In this document: positions 35,913 to 54,897 of the stretch, piece by piece
Layout: every line of letters starts with the position of its first letter
Numbering within the stretch: position 1 is the first letter of the stretch
Assembly (NCBI GenBank): GCA_965207375.1
Contig: OZ242274.1
Coordinates: forward strand, 1,056,001 to 1,120,000
From: Nitrosopumilaceae archaeon
Lineage (GTDB): Archaea > Thermoproteota > Nitrososphaeria > Nitrososphaerales > Nitrosopumilaceae
Direction: 5' to 3'
Length of the DNA stretch: 64,000 nucleotides
Program-made: the position numbers and the translations under genes
The notes under the pieces: generated by a model
Seen by the model: only the letters and a program-made list of their open reading frames with translations
Told to the model about the DNA's origin: nothing
Databases searched by the model: none

Positions 35913-37922
35913 TTAATTTGCAGTCTCTATTTTCTTCAAGGTGTCAGCTATTTGTTGCCATAATGGATTAGAATATTTTTGAGTGTTGTTTTGAGCCTCT
36001 GCTGCAGTCATAGGATTATCATGTTCTGTAATGTTAAATGCTGCCAAGACTCTATTCCATAAATCAGCTTGTTCTTTTACAGCTTCAATTAAAGTTGCAT
36101 TTATCGTGTATGGTGATTCTGGTACTGGTTCTACTGTAGGTGTTGGTTCTACTGGTTCAACCTGTGGTGTATCTTGAGCAATATTTGATGTGTGATTAAT
36201 CTGTGGTACGTGTATTTCCTGTGGCTCTTGTGGTGGTGTATTTTGTGTTGCATTTTGCTGTTGCTGCTGTTGTTGCTGCTGCTGCTGTTGTTGTTGCTGT
36301 GCAATTGCAGCCTCACGCTCTTGTAAGATATTTGCAATCTTGACCCATAATGGACTAGAGTATTTCTTTGTATTTGCCTGAGCCTCTGCTGCAGTAAGTG
36401 GATTATCATGTTGTATCACTCCAAATGCTGCAAGTGCTCTATTCCATCTGTCAACGTGTTGGTGACCGTGATGTACTTGACTTGCAAGGTACTTTATATC
36501 CTCAATTAGTTCTGGATCAGCTGTAGGTATTAGTATAGATTCTGGTACAATGTATGGTGTATCTTGTGCAATATTTGATGTATGATTAATCTGTGGTACA
36601 TGTATTTCCTGTGGTGAATCTTGAGGTTGCTGTGCGGCTGCATCCCTTGCAGCCTCTAATTTCTTTAATTCTTCATATACCAAATTCCAAAATGGCACGT
36701 TGCTGTATTTTTCTACATTGGCTAGAGCCTCTTCTGCAGTCATAGGATTAGAGTGTTCTATTTCTCCAAATGCTGCCAAGACCCTATTCCATAAATCAAC
36801 GTGTTCTGCACCAAGCTGCGTTTGTGTTGCCATTATCTTTGCACCGTCTATTACTGATGGATCAATTTCATCATACGGATTTTCTGGTATTGGAACGCCA
36901 GTTTTGATGGGGGTTAGGTCACCGCCAATATCATTGTCAGTTATATCAATTGTTATGCTAGAAGACCCAACTATTGTATAAGATGAGTGTGGGCGTATCG
37001 TAAACGTAACACTGCCGTCATTTTCGTTTGCATTATCATTGTTGGTAAATATACCGTAGGCTCTTGTATCTGGAGTTGTTATGTAATTACCTGGTGGTGT
37101 CAAAGAGTCAATGAAATCTCCAGTCTGTGAAATGGTGATATGTACTGCTATGTCCTGACTTGCATCCCACAATGCATTTACTGTTGTGCCTTCAACCACT
37201 GATGGATCCTGCGTATTCCACCTCAAATTACTTATTGTAGGTCCTGTAGGCTGTACAGTGGTAGTAGCACCAAACGAAGCCTCCCAATAATGTTGGCTGC
37301 TTTGTATTATATCTGATGGAGTGTGTGAATGTATCCAGTCATAGAGGTATGGGTTATCTACAGTGCGTTCTACTATTGGTGAAACCTGGACAAGTAGTGA
37401 TTCACCATTTACAACATTTCCTGCGTATGTAGTCCATGAGGCAGTACCTGTATTTGACCCTTCATTGATGGTTATCTTTTTGAAGAGCCAAGGATTGTTG
37501 CCTCTAAATGTTTCAGTGTCGCTGCCAGTGCCACCTACTGTGGCCATATTGAAATTATCACATCTATTTGCTGTACCGTGTGGCTTGGAACTGTGAGATA
37601 ATTGACAGTCATCAATTTGTACCCAAAATTCTATTTTCTCTCCTGTTTTGAGGCTCTCATCTAGAGTTACAGTTACTGTGAAGGGTTGGCCATGAGCTGT
37701 ATTACTGGTTGTGACTTGGGCCTTGTTTATCTTGCCATCATCTCTATAAAATTGAGGGGACATTGTAACGGATGAATCCTCTTGGTGACAGAATTGGTTA
37801 GTCAGTGATTTGGATCTAATGTCCCAACATAACTCATGTTCGGAGAATGCCTCTGGTGTTTGAACACCAAACAATAATGATACTGAAACTGCCATAATAA
37901 CTGCAAAGTATAATGTTTTCAC
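35913..37922 (-). CDS. secreted variable surface protein, copy 1 (hypervariable N-domain, Calx-beta-like domain, 3 helical repeats, Q/P-rich linkers)
   Basis: Signal peptide; NDNANENDGSVTFTI...ITDND; three WNRxLAAF...NP(M/L)TAxEA...KY..P.W repeats; paralog at 52643-54778. Confidence 0.85.
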   Translation of the reverse strand: MKTLYFAVIMAVSVSLLFGVQTPEAFSEHELCWDIRSKSLTNQFCHQEDSSVTMSPQFYRDDGKINKAQVTTSNTAHGQPFTVTVTLDESLKTGEKIEFWVQIDDCQLSHSSKPHGTANRCDNFNMATVGGTGSDTETFRGNNPWLFKKITINEGSNTGTASWTTYAGNVVNGESLLVQVSPIVERTVDNPYLYDWIHSHTPSDIIQSSQHYWEASFGATTTVQPTGPTISNLRWNTQDPSVVEGTTVNALWDASQDIAVHITISQTGDFIDSLTPPGNYITTPDTRAYGIFTNNDNANENDGSVTFTIRPHSSYTIVGSSSITIDITDNDIGGDLTPIKTGVPIPENPYDEIDPSVIDGAKIMATQTQLGAEHVDLWNRVLAAFGEIEHSNPMTAEEALANVEKYSNVPFWNLVYEELKKLEAARDAAAQQPQDSPQEIHVPQINHTSNIAQDTPYIVPESILIPTADPELIEDIKYLASQVHHGHQHVDRWNRALAAFGVIQHDNPLTAAEAQANTKKYSSPLWVKIANILQEREAAIAQQQQQQQQQQQQQQQNATQNTPPQEPQEIHVPQINHTSNIAQDTPQVEPVEPTPTVEPVPESPYTINATLIEAVKEQADLWNRVLAAFNITEHDNPMTAAEAQNNTQKYSNPLWQQIADTLKKIETAN

Positions 37923-37931
37923 AAAATTAAC

Positions 37932-37950
37932 GGGGGGGGGGTTCTAAAAA
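37932..37950 (-). promoter_or_regulatory. TATA-like box TTTTTAGA followed by a C10 homopolymer, 9 nt before the GTG start
   Basis: Plus strand G10 at 37932-37941 then ttctaaaaa; box begins about 28 nt before the start codon. Confidence 0.6.
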
Positions 37951-38038
37951 TGTTGCGATTTGAACCAAGAGGTAAAATGAATCCATAATTGCCATCTGAG
38001 ACATGATTCATAATTAGATCTGGGCACGGATTTTTGCT

Positions 38039-38146
38039 CTTGTTAGGCGTGATTTTCTAATTACGACTCACCTCTTAGAGGAAACAGGAATATCCGTATG
38101 GACCCTAAACTTGTTAGGCGTGATTTTCTAATTACGACTCACCTCT
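38039..38146. repeat. two identical 37-bp direct repeats separated by a 34-bp unique spacer (CRISPR-like mini-array; no cas genes in window)
   Basis: cttgttaggcgtgattttctaattacgactcacctct at 38039-38075 and 38110-38146. Confidence 0.85.
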
Positions 38147-52642: not shown

Positions 52643-54778
52643 TTAATTTGTAGCCTCTATTTTCTTTAAGGTGTCAGCTATTTGTTGCCATAGTGGATTA
52701 GAATATTTTTGGGTATTGTTTTGGGCTTCGGCTGCAGTCATAGGATTATCATGTTCTGTAATGTTAAATGCTGCCAAGACTCTATTCCATAAATCAGCTT
52801 GTTCTTTTACAACTTCAATTAAAGTTGCATTTATCGTGTATGTTGGTTCAGGTACTGGTTCTACTATAGGTGTTGGTTCTACTATAGGTGTTGGTTCTAC
52901 TATAGGTGTTGGTTCTACTATAGGTGTTGGTTCTACTATAGGTGTTGGTTCTACTATAGGTGTTGGTTCTACTATAGGTGTTGGTTCTACCTGTGATGTA
53001 TCTTGAGCAACGGCTGATGTTTGGTTAACCTGTGGTACGTGTATTTCCTGTGGCTCTTGCTGTGGTGTATTTTGTGTTGCATTTTGCTGCTGCTGCTGTT
53101 GTTCAATTGCAGCCTCACGCTCTTGTAAGATATTTGCAATCTTGACCCATAATGGACTAGAATATTTCTTTGTATTTGCCTGTGCCTCTGCTGCAGTAAG
53201 TGGATTATCATGTTGTATCACTCCAAATGCTGCAAGTGCTCTATTCCATCTGTCAACATGTTGGTGACCGTGATGTACTTGACTTGCAAGGTACTTTATG
53301 TCCTCAATTAGTTCTGGGTCAGCTGTAGGTATTGGTATAGATTCTGGTACAATTATCGGTGTATCTTGTGCGATATTTGATGTGTGGTTAATTTGTGGTA
53401 CGTGTATTTCCTGTGGTTGCTGTGGTGAATCTTGAGGTTGCTGTGCGGCTGCATCCCTTGCAGCCTCTAATTTAGCCAGTTCTTGAGCAACTAAACCCCA
53501 AAATGCATTATTGTATTTTTTTACATTGGCCAGAGCCTCTGCTGCAGTCATAGGATTGTCATGTTGTATTTCTCCAAATGCTGCCAAGACCCTATTCCAT
53601 CTGTCAACGTGTTCTGCACCAAGATGAGTTTGTTGTGCCATTATCTTTGCACCGTCTATTACTGATGGATCAATTTCATCATACGGATTTTCTGGTATTG
53701 GAACACCGGTTGTGAGTCTGGGTTGTCCGTCACCGCCACCATCATCATCCTGTATTAAGATTACAGCACGCGATGGGTCACCTATAGTATATCCATTACC
53801 TGGAAGTAACGTAAATGTGACGCTTCCATCTGCTTCATCTGTGGAATCATCTAATGTAGCTAGACTGACAGTCCGGGCGTTTGATGTTAATATAATTGAC
53901 CTATCGTTCAGTTCAAAATTAAGCCGAGCATATTCTCCTACTTGGGAAGTTCGATAATTTACTGTTACAGGATTTATTGATGTGGCTGGAGGTGATATAG
54001 TTATTTCTGCTATAACGGTAGCACCTTCAATCACTGATACAGGATTAATTGTGGAAGGTAGAATTGTCACTACATTAGCTGTTCCAATCTGTGTCTCCCA
54101 AAAATGTTGGCTAGCATACCTTGCATCAGACGGATTATTTGGATGTATCCACTCATGGAGGTATGGGCTATCTACAGTGCGTTCTACTATAGGTGAAACC
54201 ATGACAAGTAGTGATTCGGGACTGCCACCATAATTGGCTACATTTGTAGACCATGAGGCACTACCTGTATTTGACCCTGCATTGATGGTTATCTTTTTGT
54301 AGGTGACAGGAAGGTAGGTGGGGTTGGTTCCTAAATCCCTGTCGGCCGTGCTACTGTAGGTTGCAAATGTTTCAGTGTCGCTGCTAGTGCCGCCGAGGGT
54401 GGCATGAGTGGTACTACTACATAGGTTTGCTGCACTTGACCTGACAGAAGCGTGAGATGCATGACAGTCATTAAGCTGTGCATAAAATTCTATTTTCTCT
54501 CCTGTTTTGAGGTGCTCATCTAGAGTTACAGTTACTGTGATGGGTTGACCAGAAGCGGGATTGTTTAGTGTGACTAGGGCTCTGTTTATCTCATTGTCAT
54601 CTGTATAAAATTGAGGGGCCATTGTAACGGATGGCACAATTGGGTGACAGGCAGTGTGGAAATTCGTTTCGCCGTTTATGCGGCAAAGCACATGGTCAGA
54701 AAATGCCTCTGGTGTTTGAACACCGAGCAATAATGATATAGAAACTGCCATAATAACTGCAAAGTATAATGTTTTCAC
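52643..54778 (-). CDS. secreted variable surface protein, copy 2
   Basis: Paralog of 35913-37922; TLDDSTDEADGSVTFTL...IQDDD Calx-beta-like motif; 7x VEPTPI. Confidence 0.85.
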   Translation of the reverse strand: MKTLYFAVIMAVSISLLLGVQTPEAFSDHVLCRINGETNFHTACHPIVPSVTMAPQFYTDDNEINRALVTLNNPASGQPITVTVTLDEHLKTGEKIEFYAQLNDCHASHASVRSSAANLCSSTTHATLGGTSSDTETFATYSSTADRDLGTNPTYLPVTYKKITINAGSNTGSASWSTNVANYGGSPESLLVMVSPIVERTVDSPYLHEWIHPNNPSDARYASQHFWETQIGTANVVTILPSTINPVSVIEGATVIAEITISPPATSINPVTVNYRTSQVGEYARLNFELNDRSIILTSNARTVSLATLDDSTDEADGSVTFTLLPGNGYTIGDPSRAVILIQDDDGGGDGQPRLTTGVPIPENPYDEIDPSVIDGAKIMAQQTHLGAEHVDRWNRVLAAFGEIQHDNPMTAAEALANVKKYNNAFWGLVAQELAKLEAARDAAAQQPQDSPQQPQEIHVPQINHTSNIAQDTPIIVPESIPIPTADPELIEDIKYLASQVHHGHQHVDRWNRALAAFGVIQHDNPLTAAEAQANTKKYSSPLWVKIANILQEREAAIEQQQQQQNATQNTPQQEPQEIHVPQVNQTSAVAQDTSQVEPTPIVEPTPIVEPTPIVEPTPIVEPTPIVEPTPIVEPTPIVEPVPEPTYTINATLIEVVKEQADLWNRVLAAFNITEHDNPMTAAEAQNNTQKYSNPLWQQIADTLKKIEATN
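52856..52990. repeat. 18-bp perfect tandem repeat, 7.5 copies (VEPTPI)
   Basis: Unit tggttctactataggtgt. Confidence 0.95.
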
Positions 54779-54787
54779 AAAATTAAC

Positions 54788-54805
54788 GGGGGGGGGTTCT
54801 AAAAA
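54788..54805 (-). promoter_or_regulatory. TATA-like box followed by a C9 homopolymer before the GTG start of copy 2
   Basis: Plus strand G9 at 54788-54796, same context as 37932-37950. Confidence 0.6.
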
Positions 54806-54897
54806 TGTTGCGATTTGAGCAAGTGTACCAGATCAGATCAAGCTCAAATCCGCACCTAATACAATAAATTGATTATTCATTATATTCCTACATAAAA

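Follow-up and report, generated by a model that had tools for sequence, protein, structure and literature searches.

Candidate contingency loci in an archaeon: poly-C tracts between TATA box and start codon in a secreted, adhesin-like protein family of a Nitrosopumilaceae genome

Two runs of cytosine that fill the spacer between TATA box and start codon of two paralogous genes in an ammonia-oxidising archaeon of the Nitrosopumilaceae are, with moderate probability in our judgement, part of a set of archaeal contingency loci in a lineage-specific family of secreted, adhesin-like proteins. Both runs lie in a stretch of 64,000 nucleotides (positions 1,056,001 to 1,120,000 of OZ242274.1), analysed as a whole and here called the window, on contig C1 (2.16 Mb, 38% GC) of the four-contig assembly G000. 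The recurrence of such tracts throughout the family and across genera, together with the presence of in-frame and out-of-frame copies inside coding regions, favours a mutable switch as far as sequence patterns can indicate one.

Random switching of genes between on and off through slippage at repeats is characteristic of bacteria adapted to a host. Our search of the full-text literature returned no account of slipped-repeat switching at an archaeal promoter. In the passages concerned, a 2025 review names archaea just as a future extension of the field (PMC11868660), and a preprint says that archaeal contingency loci have been studied, citing a 1987 survey of simple repeats (10.1101/2025.10.21.683753). 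A study that looked for homopolymers in coding genes across 18 archaeal genomes reports, in the part that bears on run length, a significant excess of 8-9-base poly(A)/poly(T) only in Candidatus Methanoregula (PMC2831843).

Poly-C tracts separate TATA box and start codon in two paralogues

The window contains two genes, A and B, whose 5' regions have the same layout on the coding strand, tcaaatcgcaaca-TTTTTAGA-a-Cn-gttaatttt-GTG, and whose products begin with the same signal-peptide-like N-terminus, MKTLYFAVIMAVS (Table 1). A preliminary description of this DNA had placed a run of ten and a run of nine G (C on the coding strand) between the TATA-like box and the GTG of two paralogues, and both are present as claimed. 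It had also held that the copies share their upstream block and differ only in tract length. Our alignment agrees: tract length excepted, the two loci are identical from 22 nt 5' of the tract, through the GTG, to about 45 nt into the ORF, and beyond the conserved upstream block they are unrelated. The tracts had further been named the longest G/C runs noticed in the window, where they are in fact the sole G/C runs longer than 6. A two-colour sequencing artefact was considered for both tracts and rejected, as each is internal to a 2.16-Mb contig.

Just 5' of the gene A promoter we also noted a 37-nt repeat (starting CTCTTGTTAGGCGTG) at 38037-38073 and 38108-38144 of the window, 71 nt apart. About 18 dispersed copies with at most 6 mismatches occur on both strands of C1, and a stretch resembling this repeat also lies 5' of the paralogue at position 1343634.

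Table 1. Features of the two window loci, and tracts at homologous loci in other genomes
Feature	Positions in window	Strand	Remarks
Gene A, 669 aa, GTG start	35913..37922	-	
Segment gttaatttt between tract and GTG, paralogue A	37923..37931	-	9 nt
Poly-C tract, paralogue A (C10 on coding strand; G10 on +)	37932..37941	-	fills the spacer between TATA box and start codon
TATA box TTTTTAGA, paralogue A	37943..37950	-	first T 28 nt 5' of the G of GTG; PWM score (own-genome matrix) 10.6
BRE-like and conserved upstream part (tcaaatcGCAACA), paralogue A	37951..37963	-	paralogue homology stops here
Gene B, 711 aa, GTG start	52643..54778	-	64% identity to A
Segment gttaatttt between tract and GTG, paralogue B	54779..54787	-	9 nt
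Poly-C tract, paralogue B (C9 on coding strand; G9 on +)	54788..54796	-	
TATA box TTTTTAGA, paralogue B	54798..54805	-	first T 27 nt 5' of GTG
BRE-like and conserved upstream part, paralogue B	54806..54818	-	
Homologous locus L047			TTTAAAAA-ca-C13-tgtgcc-ATG; TATA-to-start distance 29
Homologous locus L048			TTTAAGTA-cg-C10-10 nt-ATG; TATA-to-start distance 30
Homologous locus L049			TTTAAATG-7 nt-G12-tca-TTG; TATA-to-start distance 30
Homologous locus L052			G15; distance 36; gene with further frame breaks
Homologous loci L088 and L090 (G101, duplicated loci)			TTTATAAC-10 nt-C10-a-ATG; distance 29; both C10
Homologous loci L101 (G10) and L102 (G7)			within the sequence that encodes the signal peptide; both out of frame by reading of the printed sequence
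Homologous locus L089 (G117)			G9 beside a TATA-like box; second tract, G10, inside the 5' coding part

Long G/C runs on the chromosome are concentrated at the 5' ends of one gene family

On C1, runs of G or C of length 5, 6, 7 and 8 numbered 591, 82, 16 and 2, and those of length 9, 10, 11 and 12 numbered 4, 10, 4 and 1, giving the distribution a second mode at length 10; A/T runs decayed smoothly with length. Geometric extrapolation, made for contig C1 only, predicts 0.56 G/C runs of at least 9, against 19 observed (Poisson P ~8e-23), a statistic that overstates independence because the tract copies are paralogues related by descent and hence not independent events. One family of secreted proteins has 16 of these 19 runs at the 5' ends of its genes, and in G000 the family tract is always C on the coding strand. 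What had first been noticed in two paralogues thus extends to 16 family genes with C9-C12 at the 5' end. The three long runs outside the family (1480665, 1795394 and 1916464) have no clear promoter context. One of them, a G11 on the minus strand at 1795394-1795404, ends 1 nt 5' of the ATG of a non-family ORF of 833 aa, which may be a further switchable gene.

We treated C1 as the archaeal chromosome because ORFs of at least 200 aa cover 71% of its bases, as against 7-14% of those of C2-C4. These three contigs (0.43-0.93 Mb, 37% GC) carry microsatellite-like repeats and zero family genes, and probably represent DNA of a eukaryotic host that was binned together with the archaeal chromosome; the source archaeon is itself probably host-associated. 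Family genes between 0.23 and 1.44 Mb of C1 are on the minus strand and those from 1.66 to 2.02 Mb, as well as at 0.07 Mb, on the plus strand, with one exception at 478305. A replication-linked account of this strand pattern was set aside, the GC skew of C1 being too weak to explain the strands.

By tblastn the family occupies 24 places in the genome. Fifteen are full-length genes, all with C9-C12: nine in subfamily F1 (A and B included), three in F2 and three in F3. A fourth F3 copy is broken, accounting for two tblastn places, and has C10; a gene of 188 aa with the family promoter has C7. Three ORFs (783, 526 and 217 aa) share the C-terminal helical module alone, have other 5' ends, and show G/C runs of at most 3 there; the remaining three places are short fragments.

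Pfam and NCBIfam searches of the window proteins matched zero families; one weak TraO-like match fell on a Q-rich stretch and was disregarded. Alignment and an AlphaFold model (mean pLDDT 62, moderate confidence) give the order of the protein as a signal peptide, two beta-sandwich domains and three helical modules of about 60 aa (...HVDRWNRxLAAFG...NPLTAAEA...), with poly-Q and PT-rich linkers. The best Foldseek matches were the Calx-beta domains of NCX1 (E 1.8e-9, low TM-scores), and a relative carries a Pfam Bact_surface_Ig-like domain (E 3.5e-16). On these models the products look like extracellular beta-sandwich proteins. As for the multigene surface or host-interaction targets that are typical of contingency loci, we found signal peptides, beta-sandwiches, the Bact_surface_Ig-like relative, and a helical module shared with putatively sponge-associated bacterial metagenome-assembled genomes (MAGs).

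Promoter geometry is consistent with leaderless transcription

A position weight matrix (PWM) built from the genome's own upstream regions has GCAAGATTTTTTAATC as its consensus. Scored with it, the family promoter (GCAACATTTTTAGAAC) reaches 10.6 and agrees with the consensus at 12 of 16 positions, so that what had been described as a TATA-like box is a good match to the BRE/TATA element of its own genome. For 68 ORFs with a strong BRE/TATA match within 70 nt of the first ATG, we measured how far the first T of the TATA box lies from the start codon. Distances of 27, 28, 29, 30, 31, 32 and 33 occurred 2, 3, 6, 8, 6, 7 and 2 times, respectively, so that 27 of the 68 ORFs fall in a peak at 29-32; one of the three at 28 is the family gene 315821. 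Judged by its spacing, this peak is the signature of leaderless transcripts, and the TATA-to-start distances on C1 agree for this genome with the premise of the preliminary description that many archaeal mRNAs are leaderless. In the parts of the published work that treat these points, all 11 of 11 Thaumarchaeota fall in the leaderless class of GeneMarkS-2, in which the promoter box precedes the gene start by about 26 nt (PMC6028130), and haloarchaea have a fixed distance from BRE/TATA to transcription start and mostly leaderless transcripts (PMC2151090).

Within the family, the TATA-to-start distance is 25 in the C7 gene and 27-29 in all others, at the lower edge of the genome's 29-32 peak. 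The combination of this spacing with a PWM score of 10.6 is that of promoters of archaeal leaderless genes, and we infer leaderless transcription of the family genes from it. The arrangement is distinct from the bacterial class of -35/-10 spacers: the elements are archaeal BRE/TATA, and the tract stands between TATA box and start codon. Because the tract fills this spacer, its length sets the TATA-to-start distance; and because the distance fits leaderless transcription, transcription would start at a different place with respect to the start codon for every base slipped. As the family lies at the short end of the working range of distances, one base should matter. C10 might simply be the working spacing for the family promoter.

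The mechanism that we propose would operate as follows. TBP and TFB would fix the transcription start at a set distance from the TATA box, such that each C gained or lost during replication would place that start one base farther from the GTG or one base closer to it. The 5' end of the mRNA would then fall before the start codon, coincide with it or lie within it, and translation of the paralogue would be switched or graded. In tracts located within genes, the same slippage would shift the reading frame. With many paralogues switching independently, a population would show a stochastic mix of surface or secreted variants.

Tracts occur in promoters and inside coding regions

The long runs of the family have three placements: the TATA-to-start spacer, and two different positions within 5' coding sequence. 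As in contingency loci, where a repeat long enough to slip lies in a promoter or a 5' coding region, 16 genes have C9-C12 in the spacer or no further than 20 codons into the coding sequence. The promoter type comprises 10 of these genes, plus the C7 gene, with lengths of 7, 9, 10 (seven copies), 11 and 12. The seven copies with exactly C10, among the 11 of promoter type, include 1281883, in which 15 of 111 flanking positions differ.

That so many promoter copies are exactly C10 despite diverged flanks would be expected if the tract were instead a static cis-element, that is, a fixed promoter part of about 10 bp kept by selection and inherited by duplication, without stochastic switching. Such an element could be a stiff G:C spacer setting a low basal strength, a means of excluding archaeal histones, or a site for a family-specific regulator. 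Indels 3' of the tract also look compensated, in that an 8-nt segment goes with an extra T in the TATA run or with C12 and the distance stays at 28-29. The predominance of C10 is equally compatible with a constraint on length, with low mutability, and with a balance between mutation and selection. Two further observations count against the switch reading: the duplicated loci L088 and L090 of G101 both have C10, and the three ORFs that share the helical module alone lack a long run at their 5' ends. We nevertheless consider a static element unlikely, since it leaves unexplained the tracts that F2 and F3 carry inside coding sequence, both in frame and out of frame, and the acquisition of a tract anew at a different site.

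Six family genes have a tract in the 5' coding region, one in frame and five out of frame. Two of them, the F2 genes at 1663227 and 1705307, have another promoter and carry the run after codon 8: the C11 copy opens an ORF of 745 aa, the C10 copy meets a stop after 18 aa, and a full-length product results only at n=11 or 14. Their closest paralogue, the F2 gene at 315821, has the promoter tract and just CCCC at the intragenic site, and a long run has therefore been lost at one place and gained at another.

In F3, a GTG or ATG start (MKALSLVFMVSAA...) lies about 60 nt 5' of the run, with a TATA box of its own 30 nt away that scores 10.4-11.8 in three of the four copies and 4.9 in the fourth. The upstream start is joined to the body of 700-800 aa only at n=8 or 11; the four copies have C9, C9, C9 and C10 and are thus all out of frame. 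A downstream ATG could allow some translation, so that we describe these copies as presumptively off.

Tract lengths differ between paralogues, and mismatch-repair sensors were not detected

We detected no match to MutS_V or NucS_C in this 99.95% complete genome, and the control genomes did match. It follows that no known mismatch-repair sensor would correct slipped runs, and the tracts are predicted to be hypermutable. Campylobacter, for comparison, is not known to have MutSL.

Between paralogues, tract lengths differ (7, 9, 10, 11 and 12). The pair with the closest flanks, 256034 (C7) and 1358096 (C10), shares about 110 nt at 92-97% identity, which is too short a stretch to decide the matter. 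Logan contigs from four sequencing runs that contain this DNA (X1-X4; three samples from two studies) listed no indel at either window tract, a result that carries no information on heterogeneity, as the 5' regions, repeated about 10-fold, break the contigs and few pieces bridge the tracts; contig depth in these repeated regions was ~1000, versus ~100. Scanning metagenome contigs with a protein pattern and with the exact promoter-plus-C7 pattern gave zero matches. In protein clusters, the genome's own proteins fell in one-member clusters, and no second assembly of the same species was found there.

Indels in homopolymers are the dominant consensus error of long-read assemblies, and the difference between 10 and 9 as well as the out-of-frame states could stem from such errors, the tracts themselves being real, uniform in true length and in frame. 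The independent repetition of G10 at locus A comes from one short contig (141 nt) of a single run, X1, which may be the source sample. This account would require five of the six intragenic tracts to be wrong all at once; moreover, lengths of 7, 9, 10, 11 and 12 stand in otherwise well-assembled single-copy contexts of a 2.16-Mb contig, and independent assemblies of other genera have the same spread of 10-15. We judge consensus error to be distinctly improbable as the explanation.

Runs of at least nine identical bases also promote transcriptional slippage in bacteria and endosymbionts. Slippage by RNA polymerase could allow the out-of-frame intragenic copies to be read partly in frame with no switching at the DNA level, and the F2 and F3 tracts inside genes would indeed be transcribed. 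The promoter-type tracts, both window tracts among them, precede the predicted transcription start and would be absent from the mRNA, and the paralogues differ in tract length in the DNA itself; we give transcriptional realignment very little weight.

The tract layout recurs in other genera and other gene families

We found no family member in the 40 nearest relatives, four genomes of the same genus included. In a sample of the taxonomic family, 6 of 401 genomes (the source among them) and 3 of 27 genera contain it, and a scan of species representatives returned homologues in two thaumarchaeal MAGs. The homologues of two other Nitrosopumilaceae genera differ in base composition (45-65% GC) and have unrelated flanks, and a tract of C/G10-15 is found at the same place (Table 1). 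C in some lineages and G in others, offsets from the TATA box of 2-10 nt, and lengths of 10-15 fit a requirement for any long run better than the binding site that a static element could represent. Runs at L046, L055 and L056 stood beside Ns or at contig ends, where a two-colour artefact is possible, and were left uncounted.

The isolate codes of the homologue MAGs suggest that they derive from sponge metagenomes (compare the MAGs discussed in the relevant part of PMC8163846). The helical module (...DRWNRVLAAFG...) was also seen at 29-38% identity in bacterial MAGs of Binatia, Acidimicrobiia and unclassified affiliation (L051, L053, L054, L055, L056), a distribution that suggests a module common across phyla in one habitat.

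A search with a pattern of nine C found many long runs in the same-genus genomes G001, G003 and G004, about 11 in G005 (a fourth genus), 7 in G010, and zero matches in G007. In G005, 7 of 10 fetched tracts stood in the context TTTTATAAGCAAT(C/T)-G10..13-6 to 7 nt-ATG, at distances of 30-33. These belong to seven paralogues (L112, L114-L116, L118-L120) of an unrelated secreted family with the N-terminus MQKSMLVAAFLLPLLVLIPVSAYAQ, in which G10-G13 lies between a TTTTATAA box and the ATG; the other three were at or inside the starts of other signal-peptide-like ORFs. Taken together with the family homologues, the tract placement in G005 indicates that the layout is found repeatedly within Nitrosopumilaceae, in more than one gene family and genus. 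The seven tracts of G010 had no clear pattern, and 20 sampled tracts of G004 were heterogeneous, several appearing intragenic.

Along the chromosome, contig C2 of G004 holds about 45 tracts (C/G runs of 9-13) in a block-wise strand pattern. At one locus of this genome (L139), a C11 located 23 nt after the ATG puts the downstream ORF out of frame; a motif had led us to consider the 95-aa fragment there as a DNA methyltransferase, an assignment we dropped on zero Pfam matches.

A broader reading is that this constitutes an archaea-specific form of phase variation, in which a homopolymer in the spacer sets the register between a start positioned by TBP/TFB and a leaderless start codon, one slipped base determining whether the start codon at the 5' end of the mRNA is intact, and that symbiotic Nitrosopumilaceae use it, along with frameshift tracts, lineage-wide to vary secreted host-interaction proteins, the system having arisen repeatedly in separate gene families and genera. 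We offer this only tentatively, as a possibility that falls short of being probable.

Comparison with bacterial phase-variable systems

Promoter spacers are phase-variable in several bacteria: the C-stretch of fim2/fim3 in Bordetella pertussis, the poly-C of opc and the poly-G of porA in Neisseria meningitidis, and the poly-A of vlp in Mycoplasma hyorhinis. One-base changes there alter the spacing of promoter elements and so grade or switch transcription, and several of these systems are multigene families. The archaeal tracts resemble them in being homopolymers inside the core promoter of genes for surface proteins. In the bacterial systems, however, the run separates the -35 element (or an activator site) from the -10 element of a sigma-70 promoter, whereas the archaeal run separates BRE/TATA from the start of a probably leaderless mRNA. 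The consequence also differs: loss of polymerase binding in the one, and in the other a predicted displacement of the mRNA 5' end with respect to the start codon. We therefore regard the archaeal tracts as analogous to the bacterial promoter-spacer class rather than as members of it.

With Campylobacter, Neisseria and Haemophilus the archaeal genome shares runs in the 5' coding part of surface-related genes, with on and off frames in one genome; it differs in that its tracts are mostly in promoters instead of coding sequence, and in that switching is a prediction. As outlined in the corresponding part of PMC11868660, the poly-G phasome of Campylobacter jejuni likewise combines an AT-rich genome with bimodal G/C-run lengths and a mode at 9-11. 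The G-repeat in the mRNA leader of Helicobacter pylori tlpB, which is regulated by the sRNA RepG (PMC8295292), is similar in being a variable homopolymeric G run 5' of a start codon; that run is transcribed, serves as an sRNA target and grades expression after transcription, whereas the archaeal run is predicted to lie 5' of the transcription start.

If the switch is real, the same logic of bet-hedging has evolved in archaea, on a promoter of eukaryote-like type and through a mechanism that depends on leaderless mRNAs. The switch would then also be a candidate explanation for the stable association of sponge-associated Thaumarchaeota with their hosts. In the section of PMC8163846 that addresses this, MAGs of sponge-associated Thaumarchaeota are described as poor in eukaryote-like repeat proteins, and 'alternative mechanisms' are proposed.

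Coding repeats of the family also diverge in copy number

Apart from the 5' tracts, the paralogues diverge in repeats within the coding sequence (window positions 52840-53010 and 36140-36200; alignment columns 846-990): poly-Q stretches range from about 6 to more than 40 residues, and an EPTPIV-like unit is present in 1-8 copies. Contigs of the four sequencing runs contain several skips of 90-131 nt in the repeat part of gene B, which may come from alleles or from paralogues.
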